Positions 10,011 to 52,389 of a stretch of DNA of 64,000 nucleotides are shown one piece after another. Position 1 is the stretch's first letter, and the number at the start of each line of letters is the position of its first letter. The DNA comes from an uncultured virus (IMG/VR IMGVR_UViG_2778261060_000013). Lineage: Duplodnaviria > Heunggongvirae > Uroviricota > Caudoviricetes. The stretch is from IMG/VR virus record IMGVR_UViG_2778261060_000013; one strand, given 5' to 3'. A program made the translations under genes and the position numbers. Below the pieces are notes generated by a model. The model did no database searches. It saw nothing but the letters and a program-made list of their open reading frames with translations, and was not told the DNA's origin.

Positions 10011-10691
10011 ATGCCAAGAAAAAAGAAGCTAAAGTTCGAAGACTGTATAGAAAAAATAGACCTCGAAATAAACAAGAGGAGAAGTCGTTGGAACTTAACG
10101 GCTTTATCTTGGATGGATTTTGATGATGTTTCTCAAATTATCAGAATACATATTTTTAAAAAATGGCACCTATATGATCAATCCAAATCTCTTGCGCCTT
10201 GGATAAATACTCTGATTTCAAATCAGATTAAAAACTTAATAAGAAACAATTATGGAAATTATTGCAGGCCATGCTTAAAGTGCGCGGCAGCAGAGTCAGA
10301 TTCTTTGTGTTATATCTACGGCACTCAATGTTCTTCATGTCCTTTATTTGCGCAATGGGAAAAAACTAAAAAAGCAGCTTATCTGACTAAATTACCAACG
10401 CCCCTAGAATCAGTTCAGCAAGAAACAGAGAAACTTGAGCTTCAAGAGTTTGACTTTAACACTGTACTAAAAAGGCTAAACCTTAAACTTAAAAAAGTCT
10501 TAAAATCAAATGAGTGGACAGTTTATGAAAACTTATATTTAAAAAACAAGACTGAGCAGGAGGTAGCTAAAATTTTAGGATATAAAACCTCAGAGAAAAA
10601 TCGCAGCCCGGGCTATAAGCAAATAAAAAACATTAAAAAATCTATTATCGAAAAAGCTAAAGAAATTATTTCCGAGGATGTAAACATATGA
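10011..10691 (+). CDS. Phage ECF-like sigma factor with a Cys-rich insertion
   Basis: Region 2-like DFDDVSQ...WHLYDQSKSLAPWINTLISNQIKNLIR; region 4-like LKSNEWTVYENLYLKNKTEQEVAKILG; CRPCLKC...C...CSSC between them. Confidence 0.75.
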   Translation: MPRKKKLKFEDCIEKIDLEINKRRSRWNLTALSWMDFDDVSQIIRIHIFKKWHLYDQSKSLAPWINTLISNQIKNLIRNNYGNYCRPCLKCAAAESDSLCYIYGTQCSSCPLFAQWEKTKKAAYLTKLPTPLESVQQETEKLELQEFDFNTVLKRLNLKLKKVLKSNEWTVYENLYLKNKTEQEVAKILGYKTSEKNRSPGYKQIKNIKKSIIEKAKEIISEDVNI

Positions 10692-32456: not shown

Positions 32457-35400
32457 ATGGCCGGTACAAGGATAACACAATTTCCCAGTTTACCATCTGG
32501 GAGTTTGGCTTCGGAAGACGTTTTATTAGTAGTAGACGTCAGTGATACTTTTTATTCTCCTAGCGGCACTAACAAAGCCACCACTGTAGGCGACCTATCA
32601 AACTTTTTCAATAGCCAAGACACTTTTATAGGCTTAGGAGACACTCCCGGATCCTTTGGCAGTGCAGGGCAATCAGTTGTAGTATCTGCAGACGGAAACT
32701 CTTTAATATTTTCTGGAGTGACTGGAGTGGGCGCAGGAGGAGGGGGAGCCACAAGTTTCATAGAACTTACTGACACCGCAGATTCTTTAGGGTCTGAGGG
32801 TCAAGTAACCGTAGTTTCTGGAAGTGAGATAGTATTTTCTGGGATAGGGCATTTAGTTTCTAGAAGCGAACTTTCTAGCTATGTAACCACTTCCCAAACA
32901 GGTGATTTTATAACCAGTGATCAGACTGGAGATTTTGCAGGAGCAAGGACGACATTCGCTAGTTTAGATGATACTCCAGATTTAATAGGTTCTCCCGGGC
33001 AAGTTCTTGTTGTCTCTGATGCAGGTGGTACCTTGCAATTTTCTGACACCGCAGGAGAAGGAGCTGTAGCTTTTACCGGTCTTAATGATACCCCTTCTGG
33101 ATTAGGAATAGAAGGGCAGGCTGTTGTTGTTTCTGGTACTGGGTTAGCTTTTTCTGGAATAACATTAACGAGCACAACTGTCGTATCAGGCACAGGAGCT
33201 TTCACCGCTTTTTCACAACTAAATGACACACCTTCAGTCATACCAGAAAGTCAGCTAGTTATTGGCGGACCCACGGGCAACCTAGTTTTTTCTGGAGTAG
33301 AGTCTTTCGTCCTTACTGGAGAAACAGGAAATTTTGCAGATACAGCAACATTAGAAAGCTTCACTGAAGGTCTTAACGTAGGTACAGATTCGAGCTTGTC
33401 AGGAAGAAAACTTCATGTGGTAGGCGACGTTGAAATCTCAGGAACAATTTTTCAAAGCGGATCGATATTTGAAGGTGGGGGTGGATCTAGCACTTTTACT
33501 GGTCTTTCAGACACTCCTTCTAGCTTGGGTTCAGCCGGACAGTCAGTCGTCGTTTCCGCTGATGGAAACTCTCTAATATTTTCTGGCATAACTGGAAGTA
33601 GCGGCGGAGGCGGAACTACCATTATCTCTGGAGAAACTACTGCTAACAGTGGAATATTAGGAAACGACTTATTTACTGGCGACGGAGTAAAAACTGGGTT
33701 CATGATGACTCGGGCTCCGCTAAACGCTTTTAGCATAACAGTAGCAGTAAACGGTTTGCTACAAGCACCGGGAACCAACTATGATTTAATAAGCGGTAGA
33801 AGTGGGTTATTGTTTCCAGAAGCTCCTTCTAGCGGCGTAGAAATAGATGTACGTCATTTGGGAGGTTTAGTAGGTCCGTCTGGAGAACAGGGTATACAAG
33901 GAGAAGTAGGGGCGATTGGACCAACAGGATCGACTGGGCCAACTGGGCCAACCGGGCCGACAGGCCCAACTGGACCAACCGGGCCGACTGGACCAACTGG
34001 CCCATCCGGAGCGACAGGCGCAACTGGTCCTACAGGGCCAATAGGGCCGTCTGGAGCTACCGGCGAAAGAGGTCCCCAAGGGTCTGGCGTAGTGGGAGCT
34101 TTAGCCTCTGACATATTTACTGGCGATGGGTCGACAGTAAGTTATAATTTAACAAACAGTATAGGTGAAGCTAAGAATATTATAGTAAGCATTAACGGAT
34201 TGCTACAATCGCCGATAACCAACTATACAATTAGTGGCTCAGGCTTAACTTTCCCAGAAGCTCCGTCTAGTGGACTAGAGATAGAAGTTCGTCATCTTCA
34301 AGGTATACAAGGCCCTACCGGTGCTACCGGTCCCTCAGGGTCTGGAGGAGCTACTTCTTTTGTCGGTCTTAGCGACACTGTAGGGAGTCTAGGTATAGAA
34401 GGTCAAGTACCAGTCGTATCTGGTACAACTTTAGCGTTCTCAGGAATAACGGCAGGCACTACTTCTTTTGTAGGTCTTAGTGATACTGTAGGGAGCTTAG
34501 GCTCAGAAGGTCAAGTGCCAGTTGTGTCCGGCAGCACTTTGGCATTCTCAGGAATAACAGCAGGGTCAAGTGTGGATCTTTCGGCTGTTGATCAAAATAT
34601 CGTTCCTGACGCTACAAATACTCGAGACCTAGGAACAACAGGTAAAAGATGGAGAGACCTTTATTTATCCGGCACTTCTATATACTTAGGCCAACAAGTA
34701 CTTCAAGAGTCTGGCGGAGCTTTGAAGCTAAGCAGCGATGACGGATCAACGTTTTCAAATGTTACCACTAAAGCAGTCGCTGATGATGATTATGTCTCAA
34801 TAGCAAGTTCATCCAGTCAAGCCGTTTACGATTTTGATAGTACAGCTAACTTTAATAATACTTCTGCCGCATTTTCGGCTGGGATGTTGAATCCCGCAAC
34901 TGGCGGAAGACTGGAGCTAGATTTAGCTACCGGCATGTTTATAGAAGAGTATAGCAATACAAATAATATAGATACAGATAATAGTAGTAGCTATGCAATA
35001 GATGGGAAAGCAAAAATAGAACAGCAGTTAAATACGGGAGACGGGTCAGACGGAGATGTAACTGTTTCAACATCGGGAACTTACACGATGGATACAGACA
35101 GTTTGATAGCGGGAAGAACAGTCGCAGATGCGGTGGCTTTTAACGCTGATTCATTTACCACTAATACTGTTGTTTTGACCGACACTCCGAGTGGTATTGC
35201 CGCGGGGGACGAAGTAATAATTTATTGCGCGCAAGGTTACGGAACTCATAGTCGAACTTCTGGAAATACTGCGCCGAATAGCAGAAGAGTTAACGTAGGC
35301 AATTATGAATTCTTGACAGTAGATTCTGTAGATTCTAGTAGCAAGACAATAACTTTTACTACTACTAAGGAAAAATATTACGGAAACGCATCAGGCTCAG

Positions 35401-37256
35401 ATAGTACTATAGGAACAGGAGGCAGTGAAATGAAAGTCATTGTCCAACGAGTTCCTCATTACGCGAACTTAACCGTAGGTGAAAGTGCCACTATGACTGC
35501 CAGCAAGTGGAACGGCACTAAAGGAGGTTTGATGATTTTTAGAGTAGGAGGGACTCTTACAAATAATGGAACTATAGATGCTGGGGGTATTGGGTATAGA
35601 GGGGGTTTTGCTGGAGCTGCGTTTAGCGCTAGGTCTTCAGCTGGAGAAAGTATAATGGGCGGCCCATTTGAGTACAGTTCAGATAGCGTAGCCCGTAACG
35701 ATGCTGGAGGAGGATCTCATGACTGGAAGGGAACAGGCGGAAATCATCACGGGGATGATGAGATGGTAGACAATAACAATCATGGCAATTATTATAATTA
35801 TACTAATCCTTATGATTATTTGGATTTCTCAGGGAATGTATTAAGTTCTATAACGGATTACTCAAAATTGCTTTTTGGTTCTGGAGGAGGGCAGTTTAGA
35901 AACGGTAACGGTGGAGATGGCGGAGGTATTATATATTTTCATGCTAACGTTTATATTCAAGACGGAACAGCTAACATAAGGTCAAGTTATCATAACGGAG
36001 GTCAGAGTAATGGAAGTAATGGCAACAGCGGTTATGGCGCTGGTGGTGAAATTCAAATTTTTGTAAATTCAGTAACCTTAACAGGGAACTCTTTTTCTGT
36101 TTCCGGAGCAAGTTATACAAACAACGGACGTGTGACTAGATCTAGTTCTGGTAGATTTAGAATGACTTACGTAAGTTTGTCTGGAAGCATCTACTCTGGC
36201 ACTTACTTTTATTCTAGCCAGATAGCCGGAGCTTTTTCTGCGAGCGCTATAATACAATCAACTAACGTGCTCTCTAGCGCTGGACAGGTTGATTCAATCA
36301 ACAGACTTCTAACAACTGTTACTAGTTTGCCCGGAGGGTCACAAGCTTTAATACAGTTTGCTACGGGAACTGGAGCAGGTTTTTACTGGCAAGATGCAAC
36401 GGGAGGTTCTGGTTTAAGTACAGCTTTGACAGCAGGAACAGATACGGTGACGGACCTATCTTCTTTGAATTGGTCTGGTACTAATTTCTATTACAAATTA
36501 ACTTTAACTGGGAACGGAACTAGCACTCCAGAGCTAGATACTCTCAAAGTAGATTACGACCCTGATTTGTTTATCGGCACCGAACAAACTTGGACATCGC
36601 AAGCTTTAGGAGATGGCACAAAAAGAATTACCCCGACTTCTTTTACAGCTTTTTGGACAGATGATTCGGACAATATAAAACCAAAATATCAATTACTTGG
36701 TTCTGATACGTCTGATTTTTCTTCTATTAACTATTATCCGGGAGTTAGCGACTATTATCAAGATGGCGGTACGTATGATATAGACAACGAAACTGCATTT
36801 GATTTAACGACAGCCATCACCCAGTATAATAAATACTGGAAAGTAAAAGTCTATATTTCAAGTGGCCCCACAGCTGCGGATGCTCCAACAGTAGATAGAG
36901 TAAAGTTAAACGCTAATTTAGCAGATGATTTTGATCAAAAAGGCATTGCAAAAGCATGGGTTAATTTTATAGGAGTAACTGGAGGCGATGCCACTTTAAC
37001 AGATAGCTTAAACGTAACCAGCGTTAGTAGAATATCGACAGGAGTTTATACTGTTAATTTTAGCGGCCATTTTGACGATACTAATTATATGTTTACGGCC
37101 GGTGGATATCAAAATGAAGGTGGTTATGCAGTTATGCCGGTACGTGACGCTACGGGGACTACTTCGGTCTCAGGTTATCAAATAGCAATAGTTTCTGGTC
37201 AAAGTAGAATAGATTCAACAGGACAAGGAGTTTACTTAAGTTTCTTAGGAAGTTAA
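32457..37256 (+). CDS. Long fibre protein (LxDTP repeats, collagen GPT, FTGDG domains, Gly-rich domain, KAW tip domain)
   Basis: 1599-aa ORF with these motifs visible. Confidence 0.8.
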
Positions 37257-37278: not shown

Positions 37279-39294
37279 GTGTCAAATATTAAGAAAATAT
37301 TACCAAGCTTAGTAGATAGCGGAAATTTTACTTCCGACCTAGTTCCTGATGGTAGCGGCACTAGAGACTTAGGTAGCTCTGCTAAACCATGGAAGGATTT
37401 ATATGTAACTTCGGGCACGATCAACATTGGCGGCGAAACTATTAGTGTTGACGATGATGGCATATCTTTTTCTAGACCTATTAAAGTTAGAGAAGGTGGG
37501 CAAACGAGAAGATTAAGAGCAACTAACTCAGATTTTATAACTACAGGAGACACTGGCAATTTCGCCGATGTAAGTTCTTTGGAAAGTTTTCCACGGGGTT
37601 TAAATGTAGGAACTAGTACAAACTTAGCTAGCAGAACTTTGCAAGTGGTGGGCGATGTAGAAATCTCTGGCACTATATTTCAGAGTGGTTCTGTGTTTGA
37701 AGGCGGTGGTGGCGGAGGCGGAGGAGGAGGATCTTCGACTTTTACCGGTTTAAGCGACACTCCTAGTTCATTTACCGCAAATAAATATTTGTCAGTAAAT
37801 TCAGCAGGCAATGCTATTGAGATGGTAGATGCTGTTCAGTCTGGTCATCAGTCTGTCGAACAGGGATACTTTACCGGTCTAACTTTAAATGGAACAGGGA
37901 CTGGGATCCTGCAAAACGCAAGTGGCACAATTTCTAATTTAGATCTCGCCGATAATAAGTTTGATGTTAGTGTCATAGAGGAAAGAGACAGCACTACCGG
38001 AGATGCATATCTTAGTTCGGTGGAGCTGCAGTGTACTTACGAAACTAATATTAACGATGAGAGTGATAATGCTGTAACAGCCACAGCAGTAGGCTCTGCC
38101 GCGAGAAGCACCTCCCAAGCCAAAGAAGGAAGCGCTAGTTTAGATACAAATGGTGACTACATAACATTTCCATATAGTGCCGACTATACGAAAATGAGTG
38201 GTGATTTTACTATAGAAGTATGGTTTTACTATCAAGGTGATGAAGGCATGATAGCATCTGCCGGTAACGGATCAAATGGTTGGGGCTTTTACGTAAACAC
38301 CTCAGGAGACGGCGGAAATCATGGAATAAGGTGGCAGACTTATGGCAGCCAGAGCATGAACGTTTACCAACGCCTTGGCGGCAGTTTTTCAAGTTCTACT
38401 TGGTACCACGCAGCTGTGGTTAGAAGTGGTAATAGCGTAAAAGTTTATTTAAATGGTGTTTCTAGTCATGGAGCTTCGTCCATGACTTCTGGTTTGGAAA
38501 ACGGTAGCAATACTTTGCTCTATGTTGGTACTTATAGCGGCACGGGACAACAGAATCTACAACGCCTAGATGCATTTTTAGACCTGTTCCGAATTACCAC
38601 AGCTGCTAGATACACATCTAATTTTACTCCACCCACCAGCTTTCAAGGAAATGTAACAGAAGCTAAATATATCGGGCAGATAGGCGGTATAGATGATAGC
38701 GATGTAGACTACGGAATACAGAAATTATCTAACTCGCAGTTGATGATTAAAAAGTTGTCGAGTAATGATTTTACTCCCGACAGACTTTATGTAAACGTAA
38801 ATAAATTAGGCGCGCTGGGACAAGGCATAGCTTTTGATCAGCTTTATACTGGAGATGGCACGACTACTAATTACGCACTTTCAGAGAACGTTTCTAACGC
38901 AAGAGATGTACTAGTATCGGTTGAAGGTCTAATACAAACGCCGATAACCGACTATACTCTTTTAGGTCAGACGGGAGTTTCGTTTACAACCGGCGTTACA
39001 AGTGGTCACGAAATTAGTTTCCGACACTTGGCTTTAGGGCCTTCAGGCGCAACTGGCCCAGCAGGAGCTTCGGCGAATATTAGTTATCTAACTAACAGAT
39101 TTACCGGCAACGGAGTTGTTAGTGGTTTTGAAATGACGAGATCAATTTCAACTGCAGATCAAATTTTTGTTTTTGTGAACGGATTAGTGCAAGATAGTGG
39201 AGAGAACTTTAGCGTTACTAACGGAACAGGGTTATTTTTCTCCAGCGGAGAAATAGCTAGCGGAGATAAAATCATGGTGAGGCATATATACTAA
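37279..39294 (+). CDS. Fibre protein with a LamG domain and two FTGDG domains
   Basis: RDLGSSAKPWKDLY, GDFTIEVW, WYHAAVVR, ARYTSNFTPP. Confidence 0.8.
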   Translation: MSNIKKILPSLVDSGNFTSDLVPDGSGTRDLGSSAKPWKDLYVTSGTINIGGETISVDDDGISFSRPIKVREGGQTRRLRATNSDFITTGDTGNFADVSSLESFPRGLNVGTSTNLASRTLQVVGDVEISGTIFQSGSVFEGGGGGGGGGGSSTFTGLSDTPSSFTANKYLSVNSAGNAIEMVDAVQSGHQSVEQGYFTGLTLNGTGTGILQNASGTISNLDLADNKFDVSVIEERDSTTGDAYLSSVELQCTYETNINDESDNAVTATAVGSAARSTSQAKEGSASLDTNGDYITFPYSADYTKMSGDFTIEVWFYYQGDEGMIASAGNGSNGWGFYVNTSGDGGNHGIRWQTYGSQSMNVYQRLGGSFSSSTWYHAAVVRSGNSVKVYLNGVSSHGASSMTSGLENGSNTLLYVGTYSGTGQQNLQRLDAFLDLFRITTAARYTSNFTPPTSFQGNVTEAKYIGQIGGIDDSDVDYGIQKLSNSQLMIKKLSSNDFTPDRLYVNVNKLGALGQGIAFDQLYTGDGTTTNYALSENVSNARDVLVSVEGLIQTPITDYTLLGQTGVSFTTGVTSGHEISFRHLALGPSGATGPAGASANISYLTNRFTGNGVVSGFEMTRSISTADQIFVFVNGLVQDSGENFSVTNGTGLFFSSGEIASGDKIMVRHIY

Positions 39295-40373
39295 TGAAAG
39301 AATTTAAACTAGATAAAATTAAAGCCACTGGCACGACGCTCGGAGACTTACATTTTCCGAAAGTGAGGTTGTTACTGCCTCTTGATGGGAGCAACGGGGC
39401 GACTGCCACGTCTGACTCTAGTAATGATAATAGAACTATAACTTTTGTAGGTTCTGATAGTGAAATTTCCACAGCACAAAGTAAATTTGGCGAGAGTAGT
39501 TTGTCAATAACCGGTGGTAGTAGCAGAATCACCACTCCCGGAACTAGTAACCTGAGCGCGACAGGAGATTTTACCATGGAAGTGTGGATTTACAATTCAA
39601 GCACTTCGGACTATCCATGCTTAATCACTAATGGTGCTTCTTCTAACGAATTAAGTCTATATTTGGCTAGCACAGCCTCTAACCAAATTCTTAGAATGTG
39701 GAATAACGGTTCCGTAACTAACTTTTCTACAACGCTACCTCAAAATCAGTGGTATCATTTTGCTCTAGTTAGAAGCGGAAGCACTGTAAAGTTATATGTA
39801 AACGGCACGGCGGATTCAACTACTAGAAGCGACTCGGGGACTTATGGATGGGGCAGCCAAAGCAACTTGCATATAGGGGGCTATCCGACAAGAACGGATT
39901 ATAATTTTGAAGGTTACCTAGATGATTTTCGCCTTACGGTTGGAACGGCTCGCTACACAACAAACTTCACCCCACCAACAACCGCTCATTTAACTTCGGC
40001 CGGAGACGTTAACAAACACATCGTCGTCAACTCGGACGCTGATGGGGTAGCGATTGGCACGGGTGGCATTAATCAAGCACGGATTGCTCATGCGTGGTGC
40101 AATTGGGACGGCACTCAAGCTGCCGCAAGTATGATAGACGGCTCTTATAACATATCAAGTATAACCGACAGCGGCACAGGAGACTATACTCTTAATTTTT
40201 CTACAGCAGCGTCAGATGCTAATTTTGCTGCAACTTCTTGTGGTATAGGGACTACAAATCAAAGTGATGTGCTTTGCCGCCCTTCGAGCGCATCTGCTAT
40301 TCGGCATTTCTCTAGACATAATGGATCAGCTTACGACAATCCTGATGCAGCAATAATAGTTTTCGGGAATTAA
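39294..40373 (+). CDS. LamG adhesin cassette 1
   Basis: GDxxFP/LPxDG start, LamG core, 37-aa hinge, KAW-type tip, ends FGN. Confidence 0.85.
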   Translation: MKEFKLDKIKATGTTLGDLHFPKVRLLLPLDGSNGATATSDSSNDNRTITFVGSDSEISTAQSKFGESSLSITGGSSRITTPGTSNLSATGDFTMEVWIYNSSTSDYPCLITNGASSNELSLYLASTASNQILRMWNNGSVTNFSTTLPQNQWYHFALVRSGSTVKLYVNGTADSTTRSDSGTYGWGSQSNLHIGGYPTRTDYNFEGYLDDFRLTVGTARYTTNFTPPTTAHLTSAGDVNKHIVVNSDADGVAIGTGGINQARIAHAWCNWDGTQAAASMIDGSYNISSITDSGTGDYTLNFSTAASDANFAATSCGIGTTNQSDVLCRPSSASAIRHFSRHNGSAYDNPDAAIIVFGN

Positions 40374-40376
40374 AAA

Positions 40377-41501
40377 ATGAATTTACAAAAATTAAGACTA
40401 GGACAACTGAAACCAGCGGACGGAGCGACGACGCTTGGGGATGTGTATTATCCTCAAACTGTCCTACTGACACCTTTCGAGGGAACAAACGGTTCCACGT
40501 CTATTAGCGATTTAAGCACAAGGAACCACTCCTCAACTTTTAGCGGTAGCAGCCTTTCGATTTCTACATCTCAAAGTAAATTTGGATCAAGTAGCTTATT
40601 TCATAATAATCAAAGCTCGACTACCGACCACGTAAGTTTGGGATCAAATAGCGACTTTTTAATAAATCAAAATACAGAATACACTCTTGAATTTTGGTAT
40701 CGTGCTTTAGATACTACTGCTAATATCCCCTTTCTTGGTTATGGAACATACAGTAGCGCTATTCAATTCCAAATGTACGCTACTGGAGATGGAGCCGTAA
40801 TTTTTAAGCAGGGTAGCGGGTCTTGGGGTTGGGGAAGTATAACTATTACGGGCGGAACCTTGACCGTAGATACTTGGAAGCATATAGCAGTAGTAAGAAA
40901 TGCCGGAACATTAACAGTATATGTGGATGGAACAAGCGTTGGAAGTGCGAGCACGGCAAATTGGGGAGGTAGTACAGGGACGCTGAGAATTGGGACTTAC
41001 TTTGGAAATTCACGAGTTGGTTATTTTTATATGGATGATCTTCGGATCACTAAAGGTATCGCTCGTTACACTGGTAATTTTACCCCGCCAACAACCGCCC
41101 ATTTAACTTCCTCCGGAGACGCAAATAAACAAATCGTCGTCAACTCCGATGCGGATGGAGTGGCAATCGGAACTGGCGGCATTAACCAAGCGCGGGTTGC
41201 GAAAGCGTGGGTTAGATTTGATCAGACGGGGAGTCAGTCTATAGACTCTAGCTATAATATATCAAGTGTAACTGATACAAATACAGGAATAAGCACTTTA
41301 AATTTTTCAACAGCGATGAGTGACGCAAACTACTCTGTCGTCGCTACTGGCGGAAGCACTAATGCAAGATATTATGCTAGTACATGGTCAATAGGAACAA
41401 GTAGTTTTCAGGTAAGAAATTTTTCAGTTTATAATGGAAGCTCTTTAGGAGAGCATTATATAGATAGAGCAGATTGCTCAGCAATAGTTTTCGGAAATTA
41501 A
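40377..41501 (+). CDS. LamG adhesin cassette 2
   Basis: Same architecture as cassette 1. Confidence 0.85.
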   Translation: MNLQKLRLGQLKPADGATTLGDVYYPQTVLLTPFEGTNGSTSISDLSTRNHSSTFSGSSLSISTSQSKFGSSSLFHNNQSSTTDHVSLGSNSDFLINQNTEYTLEFWYRALDTTANIPFLGYGTYSSAIQFQMYATGDGAVIFKQGSGSWGWGSITITGGTLTVDTWKHIAVVRNAGTLTVYVDGTSVGSASTANWGGSTGTLRIGTYFGNSRVGYFYMDDLRITKGIARYTGNFTPPTTAHLTSSGDANKQIVVNSDADGVAIGTGGINQARVAKAWVRFDQTGSQSIDSSYNISSVTDTNTGISTLNFSTAMSDANYSVVATGGSTNARYYASTWSIGTSSFQVRNFSVYNGSSLGEHYIDRADCSAIVFGN

Positions 41502-41527
41502 AAAAAAGTGTAATTAAACTCTAAGGA

Positions 41528-44500
41528 ATGGCAACGGAAATTAAAAAGTTAAGACCGGAAAGTATAAGGACCACAGGTGCATCGGCTAATGACGTGCTCA
41601 CTATTAGTGGCGGCGAAACAGTTTTCGCAAATGAACTTTCTTTGTCTGGCTTGAATATCGGCACTTCTGAGTCGGTAGCTGGTAAAAAACTCAATATAGT
41701 TGGTGATGTAGAGATTTCCGGAACTCTTTTCCAAAGCGGTGATATTTTCACTTCAAGCCCAGATTTAACCCAATCTGGATTCCTTACCGAAGAAAGTACT
41801 TCTGGTACATACTCTACTCAATTTAATGTAACTGCAGGAGGAGGTGTCTATTACGTAAGTGAGATAACTGCGGGAAGCCATACAACAACTTCACAAGTTC
41901 AACAGTTGGAGCTGTATTTACAAAGAGGAAACTCCTACAAATTTACTACTGACTCCAGCACTAATGGCCATCCTCTTATTGTTGTTACCCAAGGCGGAGG
42001 AGGAGGTTATACATATGAGTACACTTCCGGGGTAACAAATTCCAGAGCTCAAAACGGCGGAATACTTTATTTCAGAGTTCCTCAATCTGCCCCTGACACT
42101 CTTTATTATCAATGTGGCGTTCATAGTAATATGGGCGCAGCTATCAATATCGTAGGGGCAAGTGGGGCTACGGGACCTACTGGACCTACTGGACCTACAG
42201 GTCCTACTGGCCCAACGGGTCCTACTGGACCAACTGGCCCAACCGGCCCTGCTGGCTCAGATGGCTCAGATGGAGCTACAGGACCAACCGGACCAACTGG
42301 GCCAACCGGACCAACTGGACCGACTGGGCCATCCGGAGCAACAGGTGCAACTGGTCCTGCAGGTCCTACAGGACCAACCGGTCCCACCGGCCCATCAGGC
42401 GCGACAGAAAACCTTTCTGCTTCAGGCTTTGTAGATTCATCGACAAATCAAACAATCGGTGGCAATAAGACTTTCATAAATGATGTTTCTATTAATAATT
42501 TAACTGTAACAGGAACTACGACGACAGTAAATACTACTGACCTTAATGTTAAAGATAATATAATTAAGATAAACAGCGGTGAGGCTGGCGCAGGTATTAG
42601 TTTAAATTCTGGAGGACTAGTAATAGATAGAGGTAGCGCTACTGATGCAAATATTTTATTTAATGATACTACTGATAGGTTTGAAGTAAACTTCCCTATA
42701 GCTACAGAAGGAACTTTAATACCGACTGCTTTTACTGGATTAACTGATACTCCCGGTTCAATTACAGCTGGGCAAGTTTTAGTAGGTAGCGGAAGTAGTA
42801 TTACTTTTTCTGGTACAGACGCTCTTGTTGGCCCAGCAGGATCTACGGGTCCGACTGGACCAACGGGACCAACAGGTCCTAGCGGCGCAACTGGCGCAGC
42901 TGGCTCGACTGGCCCTACTGGCCCTACTGGTCCAACAGGGCCTACAGGTCCAACAGGCCCAACGGGTCCGACTGGGCCTGCGGGAGCAGGTGGAGGCGGA
43001 GGAGCTTCGGCAACTCTAACCTCAGATACTTTTACAGCTAACGGAGCGCTTACTGGATTTTCACTTTCTCTTACTCCTTCAGGAGTAAACAGTATATTAG
43101 TAAGTATTGGTGGCATACTTCAAACCCCAACTACAAACTATGTATTAGATGGTAGCACTCTTAATTTAACAAGTGCACCTCCTTCTGGAGCAGAAATAGA
43201 AGTAAGAAATTTAGACTATCAAGGTGCTAGTGGCGCGACTGGCGCAACTGGTCCAGCCGGTCCGACAGGCCCAACGGGTCCTACCGGCCCAGCGGGTGCG
43301 ACTGGCCCTAGTGGCGCGACAGGCGCTACAGGTCCCGCCGGTCCCGCCGGAGCAGACGGCGCAACAGTAACTGGCGTCGGGATAGCTTTCAGTCAAACTT
43401 TTACAGGTGACGGAACTACAGCAAATTACGCTCTTAATGCAGGGATTAACACTACTAAAGACGTATTAGTTTCAATTCAAGGATACGTTCAAACTCCAGA
43501 TATAGATTATACTTTATTAGGGACTACAGGAATATCCTTTAGCACGGGTGTTATGAATGGGCATGAAGTAAACATTCGTCATCTTGCTATGGGGCCAAGC
43601 GGCGTTGCGGGAGCGACAGGTCCAACAGGCCCAGCGGGTTCGACAGGGCCTAGCGGTGCGACTGGCGCGGCTGGCCCAACGGGTCCAACAGGCCCTGCAG
43701 GTTCAACTGGTCCGACTGGCCCAACTGGTCCTACGGGGCCAACCGGTCCCACCGGCCCATCAGGAGCGACAGAAAATTTGTCTGCTTCTGGCTTTATAAC
43801 AACTGGAGACACAGGGAATTTTGCTGATACGACCATATTAGAAAGTTTTTCTCAGGGGTTAAACGTTGGTACTAGTTCTAATTTAGCAAGCAGAAAATTG
43901 CACGTCGTTGGTGACGTAGAGATTTCAGGAACTATCTTCCAAAGTGGCTCAGTATTTGAAGGCGGCGGTGGAGGCGGTGGCTCATCTACTTTCGTAGGGT
44001 TAAGTGATACCCCGGGAAGCTTTACAGCCAATAAATATGTTAGAGTTAATTCGGCAGGCAACGCTTTAGAATTTACAGAAACTGTTGGAGGTATAAATAG
44101 TACTGATATTTTCACAGGAGATGGATCAGTTTCAGGATTTTTGCTAACTCCTACCGCAGTCACTTCTACAAAAGATTTACTAGTATCTATAAATGGTGTT
44201 CTTCAAAGACCAGATACTGACTATAGTATTGTAGGTAATACTGGATTATTTTTTAATACTAGTGTTACTAGTGGGTATTTTGTAGAGGCTAGGCATATAG
44301 TTGGAGTGAGCGGCGCGGCAGGTCCAGCGGGTCCAGCGGGTCCAGCGGGTCCATCGGGCGCAAGCGTAACTGGCGTGGGAATAGCTTTTGATCAGTCTTA
44401 TACAGGCAACGGGTCAACTACTAACTATGCTTTATCTAGCAGCGTTTCTCATGTTAGGGACTTGTTGGTAGTAGTTGAGGGCATGGTCCAATCTCCAACT

Positions 44501-46450
44501 ATAGATTATACTTTAACTGGTAATACAGGCATAGTTTTTACCACCGGAGTTCCAAGCGGGCAAGAATTAAATATTCGTCATCTTGCGATGGGACCGAGCG
44601 GTGTGGCAGGCCCAACGGGTCCGACCGGCCCAGCAGGTTCCACAGGTCCAAGTGGAGCGGATGGGGCTGCGGGGCCAACTGGACCTACAGGTCCTACGGG
44701 TCCGACTGGCCCTAGTGGCGCGACAGGCGCTACAGGTCCCGCCGGTCCCGCCGGAGCAGACGGCGCAACAGTAACTGGTGTTGGGATAGCTTTTAGCCAA
44801 ACATTTACAGGTGACGGAGCTACATCAAATTATGCTCTTAGCGCAGGAGTCAGTGCTACTAAAGACATACTGGTAACAATTCAAGGATTTGCTCAAACGC
44901 CTGACATAGATTATAACTTATTAGGGACAACTGGTATTTCTTTTAATGGAAGTATAATAAGTGGACAAGAAGTTAATGTTAGACATCTTGCAATGGGGCC
45001 AAGCGGCGTTGCGGGAGCGACAGGTCCAACAGGCCCAGCGGGTTCGACAGGGCCAAGTGGCGCGACTGGCGCGGCTGGCCCTACCGGTCCGACCGGCCCT
45101 ACCGGCCCTACCGGTCCGACTGGCCCAAGTGGCGCTACTGGTCCTACGGGTCCGACTGGGCCAACGGGTCCTACTGGCCCTTCAGCCGCCGCCGCTGTCG
45201 AAGGAACGGGAGTTTCTGGCTATGTGGCAAGGTGGGCTAGCGCCGATACTTTAACAAGTGGAGCGCTTTTTGATAATGGAACGAATGTTAGTATAGGAAC
45301 AACAAACGCTAAAGATAAATTTCATGTAAATGGTGGTAATATAATGATTACTGACACTTCGCCAGAACTCACTTTTGAAACGTCTAATAGTAGTCATTAC
45401 AACTGGCAAATTGCCGCTCAAGAAAATGTAAGTGATACTCTAGAGTTTTCTGTTGGTAGCGCTGACGCAGATGCATCAAACGACACATTTTCGCCAAAAA
45501 TGGTTATTGCACAGGGAGGCAATATTGGCATAAATCAGACAAATCCGCAAAGAAGGCTCCACGTCGTTGGCGATGTAGAAATTTCAGGAACTATATTCCA
45601 AAGCGGCTCTGTATTTGAAGGAGGCGGAGGCGGAGGAGGCGGATCGTCTACGTTCGTTGGCTTGAGCGACACTCCTGCCAACTTTACAAGTTCTGCTAAT
45701 AAATTCTTAAGAGTTAACGCAGCAGCTAACGCAGTAGAGTTCGCAGACGGAAATGGATTGCTAGATATAACTAGCACGAAGTTCACAGGAGATGGATCAA
45801 CTTCAGGCTATGCTTTGTCTTCGACAGTCAACAGCGCTAGTAACCTAATTGTTACAGTTGGTGGTCTTGTTCAAACTCCAGTAGAAGATTATACAATAGT
45901 TGATGGCACTGGAGTATTTCTAGACGAAAATGTAGTAAGCGGAGCAGTAGTAGAAGTAAGAAAAATATCACAAAATTCTTTTTCTTCTGACGATTCTGTA
46001 GCAGATGCATTCACAGGAGACGGCTCAACTTCAGGCTTCGCTTTGTCATTTAGTCCTAATGATAAAGCCGCAAACGTACTTGTGTCTCTTAATGGCATTA
46101 TTCAGCAACCAGATACGGCGTATGTAGTAAATGGGACTACTCTTAATTTTGCTTCTGGCACTGTAGCAAGCGGAGATGTAATTGATGCTAGACATATAAC
46201 AATTGGCCAGTCTGGCGCTTCCGCAGGTTCGGCGAGCATTAGCTATCATCAAGATATATTTACAGGTAACGGAGTCGTATCCGGCTTTTCAATGGGAAGA
46301 ACAGTTTCTAATATTCTAGAAACAACTGTATTTGTAAATGGCTTAGCTCAGATATCTGACGTAAACTATTTTGTAGATGGAACAGGGTTGACTTTTGCTT
46401 CTGGTGATATAGCCAGCGGCGATTTAATAATGGTTAGACATGTATACTAA
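41528..46450 (+). CDS. Collagen-like scaffold fibre with eight FTGDG domains and a cupredoxin-like domain
   Basis: 1640 aa; multiple (GPT)n tracts between repeated ~70-aa domains. Confidence 0.85.
43299..45054 (+). repeat. Identical direct repeats at 1404-bp offset (43299-43374 = 44703-44778; 43589-43650 = 44993-45054)
   Basis: 76-bp and 62-bp matches read by eye in the collagen-coding flanks. Confidence 0.8.
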
Positions 46451-47559
46451 TGAAGTTACCTAAATTAACAAATTTATCAGTTACCGGAACGACGGTTGGA
46501 GATGTGCATTTTCCGAAAGTGAAGCTGTTGCTGCCTTTTGATGGTTCGAACGGCGCAACGTCAACTACTGATAGTAGCAACGCTAATAACTCAGTGACTT
46601 TTGTCGGTACTGCTCAGTTGTCTACGGCGCAAAGTAAGTTTGGTGGGAGTAGCCTTCTACTGGATGGTAATAGCGACTACATATATATAGCTAACGATGA
46701 CTTAGATTTTTCAAGTACTGAAAGTTTTACTCTTGAATTTTGGATCTATTTTAATGATATAGACGATGGAAATATAGTAAATTTTTACTCTGATTATTCT
46801 GGAGCCAGCAACGGAATGTCAATTGATAAGAGTACTAGTAATGTGCTTAGAGCTCACAATGGAGACTCGACCCGTATTACTGGAACAACAACAGTTTCAG
46901 CTGGCCAATGGTATCACATAGCGCTGTCTGGTACTTCTGGGAGTTATAAATTATTTCTAAACGGAACTCAAGAAGGTAGCACTAGCAGTAACGGCTTCAC
47001 AGGCGGCACTACTAATAAGTATATAGGGACTTTCTATTGGGCAGGTCTAGGAGGGGCTGTTCGTCTTGTAAACGGGTATATTGAAGATTTTCGTATCACG
47101 AAAGGTGAAGCACGCTATACTTCAAACTTCACCCCGCCGACTTCCGCCCATTTAACTTCCGCCGGAGACGTTAACAAGCACATCGTTGTAAACTCGGGCG
47201 CTGACGGCGTGGCGATAGGAACTGGCGGCATTTCTCAAGCGCGGATTGCGAAAGCGTGGGCTGATATTGATGGAAGTCAAGCGGCGGCGAACATGATTGC
47301 GTCAAGTTATAACATCAGCAGTATAACCGATAATGCCACAGGGGTATTTTCATTTAACTTTTCGACAGCTATGACCGACGCTAACTATAGCGCTGTAACA
47401 AGCCTCGGATTAGATGGCGGACTCGCTACCTCTGTAGCTAGTTGTAAATTACAAGACAAGACAACTGCCTTAACTAAAGTAAGATGTACTTATCGTAGTT
47501 CAGGAGCAGCAACTGATTATGATTATAATATTATATGTTTGATAGTTTTTGGGAATTAA
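46450..47559 (+). CDS. LamG adhesin cassette 3
   Basis: Same architecture as cassette 1. Confidence 0.85.
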   Translation: MKLPKLTNLSVTGTTVGDVHFPKVKLLLPFDGSNGATSTTDSSNANNSVTFVGTAQLSTAQSKFGGSSLLLDGNSDYIYIANDDLDFSSTESFTLEFWIYFNDIDDGNIVNFYSDYSGASNGMSIDKSTSNVLRAHNGDSTRITGTTTVSAGQWYHIALSGTSGSYKLFLNGTQEGSTSSNGFTGGTTNKYIGTFYWAGLGGAVRLVNGYIEDFRITKGEARYTSNFTPPTSAHLTSAGDVNKHIVVNSGADGVAIGTGGISQARIAKAWADIDGSQAAANMIASSYNISSITDNATGVFSFNFSTAMTDANYSAVTSLGLDGGLATSVASCKLQDKTTALTKVRCTYRSSGAATDYDYNIICLIVFGN

Positions 47560-47565
47560 AAAAAT

Positions 47566-48732
47566 ATGGCTTTATCAAAATTAAGACTAGGACAGTTAAA
47601 ACCAGCCGACGGATCAACGACGGTTGGAGATGTTTACTTCCCTCAGACAAGTTTATTGTTGCCTTTTGATGGGTCGGACGCAGCCACTAGCACTAGTGAC
47701 TTAAGTAACAGAAATGCAACTGTTACTTTTGCTGGCACGGCTCAATTATCTACTGGACAAAGTAAATTTGGCGGATCCAGTTTGCTATTAGATGGTAACA
47801 GCGACTATGTATCAATTTCTGACAGCTATTGGAATACCGCTTTCGACAGTGGAGATTTTACTGTTGAATGTTGGGTAAGATTTGATTCGGGAGTTCTTGA
47901 TGGCTCCACTTCTGTTGAATTTATGGCGACTAGGGGAAACAGCGGCGGTTCATCAACTAATGGCTGGGGCCTTAGGAAGTATAATGATAATTTTATAGCT
48001 TGGTATATGCGTATAGGTAGTAGCTGGGTTTATCTTAATTATTCTCAAGGAACTAAAACAACCGTATCAGCGGACACTTGGTATCACGTTGCGGTAACAA
48101 GAAGTGGTAATACTTGGAAACTATTTTTAAATGGAACAGCCGAAGATACAATCACTAATTCAGGCAGCATAACTTCTGCCAATGGCGATAGATTCGTTAT
48201 AGGAGCCTTGGCTGGCGGCAACTTCAGTGGAGATCTCTATATGGATGGCTATATAGAGGACGTTAGAGTCACTATAGGACATGCTCGTTATACTTCAAAT
48301 TTCACAGCGCCAACTTCTGCACACTTAACTTCCGCCGGAGACGTCAACAAACACATCGTCGTCAACTCGGACGCTGATGGAGTGGCGATCGGCACGGGTG
48401 GGATAAACCAAGCGCGGATCGCGAAAGCGTGGGCAGAGTTTGATGGGTCAGGTATTACTCTAAACGCATCTTATAACGTAAGCAGTATTACTGATCATGG
48501 TAATAGAGATTATACTATAAACTTTGGTACAGCAATGGCAGACACAAATTATAGTATAGTAGGATCAAACATAGGGCAAAGCTCATCCATTTCGTATTAT
48601 TGGTCTGTGGTCACATCGAGCGGGAATGCAAAAACCACAAGCGGAGTAAGAATAAATATACCACATATTGAGGACAGTAGTTTGACAAGTAACGACCCAG
48701 ACGCAGTAAACGTAATAGCCTTCGGCAATTAA
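47566..48732 (+). CDS. LamG adhesin cassette 4
   Basis: Same architecture as cassette 1. Confidence 0.85.
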   Translation: MALSKLRLGQLKPADGSTTVGDVYFPQTSLLLPFDGSDAATSTSDLSNRNATVTFAGTAQLSTGQSKFGGSSLLLDGNSDYVSISDSYWNTAFDSGDFTVECWVRFDSGVLDGSTSVEFMATRGNSGGSSTNGWGLRKYNDNFIAWYMRIGSSWVYLNYSQGTKTTVSADTWYHVAVTRSGNTWKLFLNGTAEDTITNSGSITSANGDRFVIGALAGGNFSGDLYMDGYIEDVRVTIGHARYTSNFTAPTSAHLTSAGDVNKHIVVNSDADGVAIGTGGINQARIAKAWAEFDGSGITLNASYNVSSITDHGNRDYTINFGTAMADTNYSIVGSNIGQSSSISYYWSVVTSSGNAKTTSGVRINIPHIEDSSLTSNDPDAVNVIAFGN

Positions 48733-48734
48733 AA

Positions 48735-49892
48735 ATGAAAAAGTTACCAATAGATTATTTAGGAGCTTTTGGATCGACAGTTGGAGACGTACATTTTCCG
48801 AAAGTTAAATGGCTGTCGCCTTTCGATGGAACGAACGGCGCGACGACAACGACTGACTCGAGCAACTCTAACTCTTCATTAACTTTGCAAGGTTCAACTC
48901 AGATTTCTACAGCACAAAGCAAATTCGGCGGTAGTAGTATGTATGTGCCAAACAGTGCTCAACAAGGAGTTTACGCTAATGTTGCTGGGACTACAGTTAA
49001 TTTAACGGGAGACTTTACTATTGAATGGTGGATAAGAAGAGTGCAGGTTTCGTATGCTAATAGTATGGCGCAACTAATATATGGAATGCCATTGGCAGAC
49101 GATTTAACCGGATATGCTATGGTAGTAGGATACTATGGTTCAAGCGCAAGCACGACTCAGGGTCTTATGTATGTTAGTAGTAATGGATCTAGTTGGAACG
49201 TGGCTTCAGCAGTTCAACTTGGTACCGGCAGCTTAGGGACTGTTGGTCAATGGGTGCATATGGCATTGGTCAGATCTGGTTCTGACTGGAGTTATTATGT
49301 TGATGGTACAAGGACTTACACTGGGTCTCTTGGTTCTGCTACAATATCGACTCCCGGAAGCTACATGTACCTAGGTAGAGCTTGGGGCGACGTAAGCTCA
49401 ATGGAAGCTTACTACGATGACTTTAGGGTTACTCAAGGGCTTGCTCGATACACCGGAGCCTCTTTTACAGTTCCTACTACAGCGCATCTGACTTCGGCTG
49501 GAGACGTCAATAAGCAGATCGTCGTCAACTCGGACGCGGACGGTGTAGCGATTGGCACAGGCGGAATAAACCAAGCGCGGGTTGCGAAAGCTTGGATAAA
49601 CTTTAACGGGTCTGGAACAGTTGCTATAAGAGATAGTTATAATTTCAGCAGCTTGACTGACGATGGAACAGGCTTGTATAAAGCTAATTTTTCTACCGTT
49701 ATGTCTGATACTAATTATTCGTTCGTGGCCGAGTCATGTGGCACATTAAATGGTATAAATAATGAAAACGGGTTTACAAACCACGCGAGGAGAGCTGCCA
49801 TGTCTACAGATTATATTGGAATAGGCACTAGTGCACACGACGGTACTTTTTATGACGCTACGATAGTAATGGCGCAAGTTTTCGGGAATTAA
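48735..49892 (+). CDS. LamG adhesin cassette 5
   Basis: Same architecture as cassette 1. Confidence 0.85.
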   Translation: MKKLPIDYLGAFGSTVGDVHFPKVKWLSPFDGTNGATTTTDSSNSNSSLTLQGSTQISTAQSKFGGSSMYVPNSAQQGVYANVAGTTVNLTGDFTIEWWIRRVQVSYANSMAQLIYGMPLADDLTGYAMVVGYYGSSASTTQGLMYVSSNGSSWNVASAVQLGTGSLGTVGQWVHMALVRSGSDWSYYVDGTRTYTGSLGSATISTPGSYMYLGRAWGDVSSMEAYYDDFRVTQGLARYTGASFTVPTTAHLTSAGDVNKQIVVNSDADGVAIGTGGINQARVAKAWINFNGSGTVAIRDSYNFSSLTDDGTGLYKANFSTVMSDTNYSFVAESCGTLNGINNENGFTNHARRAAMSTDYIGIGTSAHDGTFYDATIVMAQVFGN

Positions 49893-49895
49893 AAA

Positions 49896-51032
49896 ATGAA
49901 TATAACTAAACCAAGATTAGATCAATTTAAAATAACCGGAAGCACGGTTGGAGATTTGTATTTTCCGAACGTCATCTTTCTTGCCAAGTTTGATGGCTCA
50001 AATGGCAGCACCAGCATCACAGATTCCAGCAACAAAAATAATTCAATAACTGTAAACGGAGGCGCTCAAATTTCGACGGCGGCTAGTAAGTTCGGCGGGA
50101 GTAGTCTTAAACTTGACTATGAAAATGCTGGGACAGGAGATAGATTAGTTGCCGATACAGTGGCGGATAATTTAACGTCAACTACTCATACTATAGAGTT
50201 TTGGTTTAAAACTGATATGGCAGATGGTCATATCACTAGCCAAAATCCTGCCTTTTTTGGATTTAATGATGCTGGTAGCAGTTACGATAATAGACTCGTA
50301 CTACTAATGTATAGCAAAACCGAACTTCGCTTTTATCGTGGCGTTAGTTATACAGCTTTGACAGTCAGCGCTTTAAATGATGACGCATGGCATCATATAG
50401 CAATTGTTTCTGACGGAACAGATTATGATATATATTTAGATGGCAGCAGAATAAGTTCAGATGCAGGGGATTCTAGGCAAATAAATTCAAACGATACTTT
50501 TATTATCGGCGCAGAACTGGATTCTGGTCCAAGTACAGGTAATTATTTTAGCGGCTATATAGATGATTTTAGAATTACTAACGCAGTAGCTAGATATAGT
50601 GGAGCTTCTTTCGCTTTACCTACAACGCATCTGACTTCCGAGGGAGATGTCAATAAACACATCGTCGTCAACTCCGATGCGGATGGAGTGGCGATTGGAA
50701 CAGGCGGCATTAACCAAGCGCGGATTGCAAAAGCATGGATAAATCTTGACTCAACTCAAGCAGCAGCAAGTATGATAAGGGAAAGCTATAATGTTAGTAG
50801 CATGACGGACACAGCTACAGGCAGATATACTATTAATTTTTCGACTGCTTTATCTAATGCAAACTATTGTTTTGCAGGTAGCGCAGGAAATAATGCGAGC
50901 ACAACTACAAACGGTAGGGACATTACAAATGACGGGACAAGAACAACTTCTGCATTGCCGATAAGAGTGACTCGTGACAATGACGTAGCCGTAGAAGATT
51001 CTTATGTAGGAATAATAGTTTTCGGGAATTAA
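49896..51032 (+). CDS. LamG adhesin cassette 6
   Basis: Same architecture as cassette 1. Confidence 0.85.
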   Translation: MNITKPRLDQFKITGSTVGDLYFPNVIFLAKFDGSNGSTSITDSSNKNNSITVNGGAQISTAASKFGGSSLKLDYENAGTGDRLVADTVADNLTSTTHTIEFWFKTDMADGHITSQNPAFFGFNDAGSSYDNRLVLLMYSKTELRFYRGVSYTALTVSALNDDAWHHIAIVSDGTDYDIYLDGSRISSDAGDSRQINSNDTFIIGAELDSGPSTGNYFSGYIDDFRITNAVARYSGASFALPTTHLTSEGDVNKHIVVNSDADGVAIGTGGINQARIAKAWINLDSTQAAASMIRESYNVSSMTDTATGRYTINFSTALSNANYCFAGSAGNNASTTTNGRDITNDGTRTTSALPIRVTRDNDVAVEDSYVGIIVFGN

Positions 51033-51035
51033 AAA

Positions 51036-51248
51036 ATGAAAAAAATTTTACTAACTTTTACTTTAATTTTCTCCGGTTGTTCAACCGTAGACGATCAAGG
51101 TAGGTTGGAAAAAGTCAGAATCGCCGTACCAGCTTTCTTCCAAATAGAAATGGACTACTATAAAGATAAAGAGAACAAAGGCAAGGGAAGTGTAAGTACT
51201 GATACTGTTAACGGTTATCCTAAATTAATGGACATGATAAGAAAATGA
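51036..51248 (+). CDS. Small lipoprotein inside the cassette array
   Basis: MKKILLTFTLIFSGC lipobox. Confidence 0.75.
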   Translation: MKKILLTFTLIFSGCSTVDDQGRLEKVRIAVPAFFQIEMDYYKDKENKGKGSVSTDTVNGYPKLMDMIRK

Positions 51249-52348
51249 GTTTTAACGCGCCAGATATAAGACAGTTTAAGTTGACCGGAAGTACGGTTGG
51301 AGATGTACACTTTCCAAAAGTGAAGCTTCTTTTACCTTTCAATGGCTCAAACGGTGCAACGTCAACGACTGATAGTAGTAATAGTAATAATTCAGTGACT
51401 TTCGTTGGTACTGCTCAAATATCCACGGCGCAAAGCAAGTTCGGCGGCAGCAGTATGTTGTTCGACGGTGATAGCGATTATTTAACTGTAACTAATAGTA
51501 GTTTTAGCACTTTTAATGCGTCCGGTGCGACGTTTACTATAGAATTTTGGGTTTATTTTAACTCCATAAGTGGACAACAAGACTTTGTAATGAATTATGC
51601 TAGTTCTAGTGGTGGGCTAATAATTAGAAAAACTAGCGGGCATGTCATACAGACAAACTTATCGGGAGATGGTGCTGATATAACTGGTACGACTACGGTG
51701 TCAACTGGCCAGTGGTATCATGTAGCATTATCTGGTTCTAGTGGAAGTTATAAGTTGTTTTTAAATGGTACCCAAGAAGGCAGTACTTATACGGGGGCAC
51801 TTGGGGCTGGTAGTAGTACTTATCAAATAGGAGCCTTTTACTGGTCGAGCACTCTTTATAATCCCCTGAATGGGTACTTGGATGATATGCGTTTCACCGC
51901 TGGTCTAGCAAGATATACTTCAAACTTTACTCCGCCAACTTCTGCCCATTCAACTTCCGCCGGAGATGCAAATAAACAAATAATTGTAAACTCCGACGCG
52001 GATGGAGTTGATGTAGGAACCGGCGGAATAAACCAAGCACGGATTGCAAAAGCTTGGGTTAATTTTGAGGGAACGGATACCTCTAATATAAGGGGTTCTT
52101 ATAATGTGAGTAGCATTTCTGACAGAGGTACTGGACTATTTACGGTTAATTTTTCGACAGCGATGACTGACGCAAATTATGCCGTTAATGCTACGAGTGG
52201 TCACGGCAGCGATACTGCTACGACGGCAACCGCTCGTACAGGAGGAACTATTTCGACGACGGCTTGCCATATAAGTACTGGTTACAGATCAAGCTCTTCG
52301 GTGCTTGCAGATATGAACTATAACGCGGTAACATTTTTCGGGAATTAA
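51245..52348 (+). CDS. LamG adhesin cassette 7
   Basis: Same architecture as cassette 1. Confidence 0.85.
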   Translation: MSFNAPDIRQFKLTGSTVGDVHFPKVKLLLPFNGSNGATSTTDSSNSNNSVTFVGTAQISTAQSKFGGSSMLFDGDSDYLTVTNSSFSTFNASGATFTIEFWVYFNSISGQQDFVMNYASSSGGLIIRKTSGHVIQTNLSGDGADITGTTTVSTGQWYHVALSGSSGSYKLFLNGTQEGSTYTGALGAGSSTYQIGAFYWSSTLYNPLNGYLDDMRFTAGLARYTSNFTPPTSAHSTSAGDANKQIIVNSDADGVDVGTGGINQARIAKAWVNFEGTDTSNIRGSYNVSSISDRGTGLFTVNFSTAMTDANYAVNATSGHGSDTATTATARTGGTISTTACHISTGYRSSSSVLADMNYNAVTFFGN

Positions 52349-52353
52349 AAAAA

Positions 52354-52389
52354 TTGACTTTTAGCAAAAAAAATCTATAATAAGTGTAA
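52354..52389 (+). promoter_or_regulatory. Sigma70-type promoter directly followed by a GTGTAA motif
   Basis: TTGACT (52354-59), 16 nt, TATAAT (52376-81), then GTGTAA (52384-89). Confidence 0.6.

Follow-up and report, generated by a model that had tools for sequence, protein, structure and literature searches.

The stretch analysed here (the window) comprises 64,000 nucleotides (nt) of the uncultured virus record IMGVR_UViG_2778261060_000013 in IMG/VR. It represents the structural module of an uncultured tailed phage from the ocean, marked by a terminase, a tape measure, collagen-repeat fibres and lambda J/K/L-like tail-tip genes, the last of which lie farther along the same 76,987-bp contig. 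Seven plus-strand open reading frames (ORFs) of 359-388 amino acids (aa), called cassettes c1 to c7 in what follows, share one layout: a short N-terminal peptide (N-peptide), a LamG domain, a near-invariant 37-aa linker and a tip of around 100 aa ending in FGN (Table 1). A first description made from the letters of this DNA, hereafter the original prediction, had taken them for a single array at 39294..52348 in which the linker, there called a hinge, acts as a recombination platform giving combinatorial LamG and tip receptor-binding variants. The layout it gave is borne out by the ORFs and by the Pfam and PHROG matches, and so are its account of the hinge as indel-free, near-invariant and GC-rich and its account of stereotyped gene junctions. 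The array as one block does not hold, since a 1640-aa fibre gene and a 69-aa ORF, both missed, interrupt it. There are really two runs, each directly after a fibre-type gene ending in MVRH(I/V)Y, with overlapping stop and start codons.

All seven cassettes match the Pfam family PF13385 (Laminin_G_3, of the concanavalin A-like lectin/glucanase superfamily) at E 2.3e-12 to 2.9e-22 and 47.8-79.9 bits, the curated cut-off being 27.6 bits, and the C-terminal tip of all seven matches the PHROG family phrog_11355 (tail fiber protein, 131 positions; E 6e-10 to 2.2e-16) from profile position 26 up to 85-131. In an AlphaFold monomer model of c3, the LamG domain (residues 20-230) is confident, with a predicted local distance difference test score (pLDDT) above 90, and so is the tip (39-row alignment); linker residues 240-265 fall below 50 and the first 20 residues are low. 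A separate model of linker plus tip agrees with it. Foldseek places LamG among concanavalin A-like jelly rolls at 10-20% identity, which shows the fold only. For the tip, whose best Foldseek E-value is 8e-3 and which has no sequence match to solved chains at E <= 0.1, VIA-align gives as neighbours the phiAB6 tailspike (Z 8.2), the Pam1 tailspike (8.1), SLL-2 (6.6), AP22 gp53 (6.4), Helix pomatia agglutinin (6.3) and the R2 pyocin fibre (6.2), that is, distal or C-terminal domains of phage tailspikes and fibres together with H-type lectins, in a middling range of Z (8.2-6.2). From these models, each cassette is predicted to consist of two beta-sandwich domains, a concanavalin A-like LamG and a C-terminal tip. 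That the most conserved segment is the one least foldable alone would fit an interface that takes shape only upon oligomerisation or contact with a partner.

The linker (HLTS...AKAW, 111 nt) shows an aa identity of 0.82-0.90 in 12-codon windows and a pairwise nt identity of 0.73-0.84 among the seven copies. Its GC content is 0.547 vs 0.40-0.42 elsewhere. Mean nonsynonymous divergence (dN) is 0.076 in the linker, 0.886 in the LamG core and 0.717 in the tip, and the median synonymous divergence (dS) of the linker is 1.23 (range 0.60-2.92, one of 21 pairs undefined), compared with 1.75 in the LamG core and 1.67 in the tip (six of 21 pairs undefined in each). This low dN with high dS shows that strong purifying selection on the protein holds the linker. 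Where two copies have the same residue, the codon is identical at 406 of 743 linker sites (0.546; 0.364 expected from codon usage) vs 1113 of 2512 sites elsewhere (0.443; 0.378 expected), and the longest exact tract common to any two copies is 35 nt. The synonymous sites of the linker are old, though slightly less diverged than those elsewhere.

GC content at third codon positions (GC3) in the window's seven is 0.512 in the linker vs 0.30-0.37 elsewhere. Across the 41 non-redundant cassettes of the window and IMG/VR (loci L007, L008 and L012 being dropped as duplicates of L009 and L011), it is 0.37-0.51 in the linker, 0.37-0.42 in an N-terminal conserved block and 0.29-0.35 elsewhere, a more modest excess. 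In the window and in L001-L012, GC3 is thus raised in both of the main exchange zones described below. Residue conservation alone does not explain it, since conserved columns elsewhere stay at 0.29-0.35. The excess may reflect biased repair, codon selection or chance.

A further conserved joint lies at the gene ends. The coding sequence of every cassette finishes with TT[CT]GG[GAC]AATTAA followed by a run of A, and in five of seven the next ATG comes 3-7 nt past the stop, four of these being cassette starts and the fifth that of the 69-aa ORF after c6. In the 41 cassettes the terminal F-G-N codons are near-fixed as TTC GG[GC] AAT (92%, 92% and 100%; for example 47548-47556), unlike the Phe codon elsewhere, which is mostly TTT. 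These fixed codons suggest a nucleotide-level constraint at the gene junction, which could be ribosome binding (a Shine-Dalgarno-like GGGAA stands 7 nt before the next start) or frequent recombination at the junction. The N-peptide at the other end is flexible, of around 13-15 residues and drawn from a small repertoire.

Have the seven copies exchanged parts with one another? The LamG tree pairs c3 with c7 (support 99/97), the two that had been named as closest in this domain, and a tree of the 40 N-terminal residues pairs c2 with c4 (94/98). For the tips, the tree of the seven lacks resolution; it recovers c3 with c7 weakly and does not group c1, c3 and c6. Two motifs had been offered as evidence of shuffling, and neither shows exchange across the linker. 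QAAA.MI is indeed present in the tips of c1, c3 and c6; its alanine codons differ among the three, which marks the patch as old. KLRLGQLKPADG is indeed common to c2 and c4, as an N-terminal peptide and not as a tip motif. Tip and LamG trees of the window's seven are without supported conflict, and the synonymous divergence of the linker, which the original prediction had named as refuting if saturated, is high among them. Shuffling within this genome fails by such tokens, or is at best unshown.

Programmed or frequent switching in one genome, by gene conversion among the seven copies as in pilin or variant surface glycoprotein (VSG) cassettes, has to be weighed on its own merits, and we regard it as very improbable. 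It would suit seven direct-repeat copies with a conserved 111-nt segment, and the longest exact match falls in the linker for 18 of 21 pairs; the pairwise homoplasy index (PHI) at the nt level gives p ~0.002, and the differences of one c3-like cluster representative are confined to the linker, as told below. These points are set against the linker dS and nt identity given above, the 35-nt limit on identical tracts, the trees, and the c5-c6 pair, which is found again, 100% identical and with its order kept, on an independent contig, L038. The reads bear on it as well. Public runs (19 in number) contain 21-34% of sampled words, and four of them, from four studies, were aligned to the window, uncovered parts being uninformative. 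One short contig from a metagenome runs from the c4 linker (48320) into the c3 linker (47245), with one side of 36 nt. In the four runs the sides of the contig joints measure only 20-40 nt, at 92% likeness; joints of this kind often stem from other organisms, and these are too short to establish alternative junctions. Diversity-generating retroelements and invertible segments (Mu G, P1 C, shufflons) diversify phage receptor-binding tips. They differ from the cassettes, which are complete plus-strand ORFs whose diversity lies between genomes and not within one. As the original prediction had said, neither an invertase nor a reverse transcriptase is found: the Pfam matches of the 57 ORFs of the 77-kb contig include no RVT family, template- and variable-repeat (TR/VR) pairs not being searched, and no resolvase, invertase or integrase family of the kind behind Gin/Cin/Min or shufflon-type switching.

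Beside these results stands the cluster representative just mentioned, database protein P0001, which is 99% identical to c3 and has only three differences from it, each lying in the linker (47149-47259), within its 3' half. They look like a short conversion patch.

Between genomes the picture is different. When IMG/VR was scanned with an alignment of the seven genes, 12 loci on 11 contigs came up, and all 12 carry runs of 2-7 cassettes after large fibre genes. One contig, which bears both L001 and L009, shows synteny with the window, in the order fibre with tip, LamG protein, two cassettes, giant fibre, four cassettes, gap, three cassettes, and its flanking backbone is 79-81% identical to that of the window at the nt level. 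Cassette c3 and the relative's first cassette L009_2991 share 95.6% nt identity in the front, 82% in the linker and 49.5% in the tip (98%, 95% and 39% at the aa level), and c6 and the third cassette L009_5238 share 90.4% in the front and 51.7% in the tip. The reverse pattern is given by c6 with L010_607 (front 45.5%, tip 85.8%) and by c4 with L009_8897 (front 49%, tip 84%). With a backbone at 79-81%, the fronts common to window and relative are more alike than the genomes that carry them. In the identity strings the changeover lies within the linker or at its margins. Relatives also differ in the number and order of the genes, which the original prediction missed (one relative has the fibre end, the lipoprotein-like ORF and then only two cassettes).

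A metagenome contig scan added 75 loci and brought the collection to 142 complete cassettes with 111 distinct proteins, from 57 sources (the window and 56 other loci). Around seven N-peptide types are common among the 142. One type always follows the giant fibre gene and another the lipoprotein gap; the order of other types differs between genomes, and a link to the upstream neighbour holds for three types only. A simple rule by which the N-peptide type is set by position (after a cassette vs after another gene) failed, under a crude classification.

The claim that LamG and tip relationships differ, unsupported among the window's seven, stands for the 41 cassettes. For these, the LamG tree contradicts the tip tree at branches supported at 96-100, and approximately unbiased (AU) tests rejected congruence in seven of seven finished tests (p 0.0025 to 1.5e-46), with groups picked after the trees were seen and one further test that did not finish. 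We then counted mosaic pairs. In the 41 cassettes, 53 of 820 pairs are mosaic, with 15 breaks in the linker zone, 37 at the N-terminus and one inside the tip. In the 111 distinct cassettes the figure is 493 of 6105, a pair being counted when nt identity is at least 85% to one side of its best single breakpoint and 60% at most to the other side; over the full length, only 25 pairs reach 85% identity or more. By zone, 118 breakpoints fall in the N-peptide and junction (237 alignment nt), 192 in the N-terminal conserved block (189 nt), 11 in the LamG interior (606 nt), 157 in the linker +/- 30 nt (198 nt, or 12% of the alignment length) and 15 in the tip interior (396 nt). Three conserved zones thus take 467 of the 493 breaks and the domain interiors 26, and the N-terminus, counting N-peptide or block, is a second and busier exchange zone with 310, one that the original prediction had missed. 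At the linker zone the mosaic pairs draw on 83 cassettes from 54 loci, and on every window gene but c2, six of the seven. The part of the original prediction that made the hinge a recombination platform for LamG and tip variants accordingly holds between genomes, where 157 of 493 breaks lie there, and not within this one. What the breakpoint counts mark is where exchange is tolerated and possible.

Protein databases give the same pattern on a wider scale. Eight database proteins have a LamG 98-100% identical to that of c3 and tips, of several different kinds, at 33-49%; divergence sets in within the linker in two of them and just after AKAW in six, and seven of the eight carry another N-peptide, with the switch at about residue 13. 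A set of 161 proteins, biased towards c3 relatives, falls into 34 LamG clusters and 44 tip clusters that occur in 83 combinations. The family is broad, with at least 2769 clusters (90% identity) at E <= 1e-10 among 8000 scored candidates, and all of the 120 clusters listed are unnamed or called hypothetical protein. The Protein Atlas gives unnamed viral clusters only. Isolate phage records contain no near-identical DNA, bar one 39-nt chance match, and at the protein level the best isolate hits, to structural proteins of cyanophages, cover LamG only, with 35-41% identity. Longer proteins with linker and tip were absent at E <= 1e-5 among 1216 candidates, which is weak evidence.

Could assemblers, switching between co-occurring phages at linker and N-terminal block, have produced these mosaics? 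The sequences used for comparison are nearly all contigs from metagenomes, breakpoints lie exactly where assemblers tend to switch paths, and Logan contigs over the region are fragmented (<= 702 nt among those listed), with a depth that peaks on the linkers, as expected of a conserved segment. Against such an artefact, five separately named contigs carry the L009_2991 combination, a LamG of c3 type joined to a different tip, at 100% identity, and the records of its protein cluster span 58 contigs from four sources; three IMG/VR contigs have 5-7 identical cassettes in common in the same order, L011 equals L012, and the c5-c6 pair recurs on L038. These identical recurrences mean that assembly chimeras cannot explain the main examples, though such chimeras may add some pairs to the tail of the counts; as a general account we find an artefact hardly credible. 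Exchange at conserved joints would itself explain why the region is fragmented in short-read assemblies.

Taken together, the comparisons show that across this phage lineage N-peptide, LamG and tip occur in many combinations and that the exchange points lie in conserved stretches. The reading we favour, with a probability of around 80%, is that the cassettes encode receptor-binding proteins with modules reassorted by homologous recombination at conserved joints between genomes. Ordinary homologous recombination between co-infecting relatives would suffice: crossovers would occur only where nucleotide similarity persists, only inter-domain ones would yield a foldable protein, and copy number would change by unequal crossing-over at the stereotyped junctions. 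The linker would be kept mainly for protein function, such as oligomerisation or docking, and its use as a recombination joint would be a consequence of conservation, not a programmed switch within one genome.

Several observations weigh against this reading. The seven copies are without recent exchange, to judge from the 35-nt tract, the linker dS and the trees, and the tip tree rejects neither c2+c4 (p-AU 0.325) nor the group of c1, c3 and c6 (p-AU 0.305). The PHI signal at the nt level has a tiny effect (0.476 vs 0.487) and is not significant at the aa level (p 0.096). Mosaic pairs are not independent events, and the single-breakpoint search is drawn to the edges of conserved blocks, so that exact crossover sites are unresolved by the counts; recombination anywhere, with only inter-domain chimeras surviving, fits as well as recombination promoted by the linker. 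The 161-protein combinations suffer from their bias, and the comparison sequences are mostly short-read metagenome assemblies. As to function, PHROG names are annotations and not functional tests, the best Z of the tip is about 8 when 7-8 is typical of models with no clear match, and location on the particle and receptor binding are predicted from genes and models.

A bolder version, which we regard as speculative and rather unlikely, treats the locus as an evolved, three-tier rack of adhesins. The N-peptides, a small fixed set, would be slot tags that send each protein to a docking site of its own on the fibres, the LamG and tip lectin domains would be freely exchangeable payloads, and the joints would be kept alike at the nt level. 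Such recombination-proficient joints, with their raised GC3 and frozen FGN codons, would let lineages track host surface change better. By extension, the linker might let paralogues co-assemble into mixed oligomers, with more specificities than genes.

Most probably the cassette proteins serve as receptor-binding or adhesin subunits, carried by the fibres or placed next to them. They might instead be accessory carbohydrate-binding decorations for particles, mucus or non-host surfaces, as the generic sugar-binding nature of LamG and H-type-lectin-like folds would allow; the lambda J-like tip attachment protein of the contig could then be the true receptor binder, and seven or more paralogues are many for essential ones. 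We consider this unlikely. The genes lie inside the fibre block, tightly packed against fibre genes, the tips of all seven match a tail-fibre-annotated PHROG family and have distal tailspike and fibre domains as structural neighbours, and rapid module exchange is described, in the account of Trojet et al. (PMC3157838), for host-range determinants.

How does such a locus compare with known systems? In the distal tail fibre genes gp37/gp38 of T-even phages, exchange occurs within or near conserved motifs (Tetart 1996, 1998, cited in Trojet et al. 2011, PMC3157838). As that source presents them, variable specificity segments lie there between highly conserved motifs, and chimeric adhesins bring new combinations of determinants, much as here. 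The cassettes differ in that their units are whole folded domains, where gp38 has hypervariable loops between glycine-rich motifs (as given in PMC3157838), and in that each run has 2-7 tandem paralogous genes instead of one adhesin gene. Since no gp37/gp38 family is found among the Pfam or PHROG matches of the cassettes, the two are alike in evolution and not in descent. The tailspike proteins TSP1-4 of Ackermannviridae, an example of multi-tailspike or branched receptor-binding complexes, on the description in PMC11414711, also stand side by side as several receptor-binding proteins and exchange modules while the attachment part is kept. They are large beta-helix depolymerase spikes with N-terminal anchors, and the cassettes encode small two-lectin proteins whose strongly conserved piece lies mid-protein. 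The metaviromic islands described for abundant marine phages (Mizuno et al. 2014, PMC3909814) share with the present case host-recognition regions that vary between co-occurring lineages while the rest of the genome is conserved; the concept concerns under-recruiting regions and not this family, its tandem layout or its joints.

Our literature search found no description of this family or layout, which does not prove that none exists. The exchange process is familiar; the family and its tandem three-joint architecture are new. Exchange of receptor-binding modules at conserved motifs, a textbook matter for coliphages, is met here in a marine protein family that is very common and uncharacterised. 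Tandem two-lectin genes with three discrete joints make its layout unusually clean. As a natural system defined at the sequence level, the locus lends itself to measuring recombination-driven host-range evolution in the ocean, and could help to predict the parts of uncultured phage genomes that set specificity.

Table 1. Cassettes, neighbouring genes and other sites, in window positions
Feature	Position	Strand	Remarks
Tip-like domain alone	3507-3827	-	Small ORF; one of two (hidden Markov model E 1e-11 and 2e-7)
Tip-like domain alone	3841-4182	-	Small ORF; the other of the two
Ten N bases	4502-4632
Ankyrin-repeat protein	4635-6185
319-aa LamG ORF	7052-8011	-	PF13385, E 6e-24; no linker or tip
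MscS-like channel fragment	8017-8562	-
PhoH	8556-9314
Sigma-70 region-2-like protein	10011-10691
ERCC4 nuclease	11775-12713
Large terminase	12792-14615
1599-aa collagen-repeat fibre protein	32457..37256	+	C-terminal tip-like domain (IAKAWVNF...), no linker
671-aa fibre-like protein	37279..39294	+	Internal LamG; ends ...MVRHIY, abuts c1; no linker or tip
c1	39294..40373	+	359 aa; N-peptide MKEFKLDKIKATGTT; linker 39987-40097
c2	40377..41501	+	374 aa; N-peptide MNLQKLRLGQLKPADG; linker 41100-41210
1640-aa collagen-repeat tail-fibre gene	41528..46450	+	Between c2 and c3; Collagen 2.5e-47, Phage_T7_tail 1.6e-24
c3	46450..47559	+	369 aa; linker 47149-47259
c4	47566..48732	+	388 aa; linker 48322-48432
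c5	48735..49892	+	385 aa; linker 49485-49595
c6	49896..51032	+	378 aa; linker 50628-50738
69-aa lipoprotein-like ORF	51036..51245	+	Between c6 and c7; signal peptide, lipobox-like FSGC
c7	51245..52348	+	367 aa; linker 51947-52057
Strong promoter-like site	52354-52381	+	TTGACT, 16 nt, TATAAT; just past c7, before downstream structural genes
Tape measure	start 59122

Among the neighbours of the cassettes, the 1640-aa fibre gene ends in ...MVRHVY and its stop overlaps the ATG of c3. No Pfam family matches the 69-aa ORF, which relatives conserve at 91% and 82.5% nt identity; as a putative lipoprotein beside receptor-binding genes, it would recall receptor-blocking lipoproteins such as Llp of T5. 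A scan for promoters and terminators inside the array gave nothing above chance (9 terminator-like sites vs 12.6 expected).

The contig has 40% GC vs 30% for the bin to which it was assigned, and is a tetranucleotide outlier. A Photo_RC (photosystem reaction-centre) gene was not found in that bin, which is 90% complete, and cassette DNA was not found in 100 related genomes searched, bar one 27-nt match. Tip and LamG domains also occur apart from the cassettes in the window: the two tip-only ORFs and the 319-aa LamG ORF of Table 1 lie distant from the array and on the opposite strand. Near them are the phage-borne ankyrin-repeat, MscS-like, PhoH and sigma-70-like genes of the table and the ERCC4 nuclease, which carries a C2H2 zinc finger.

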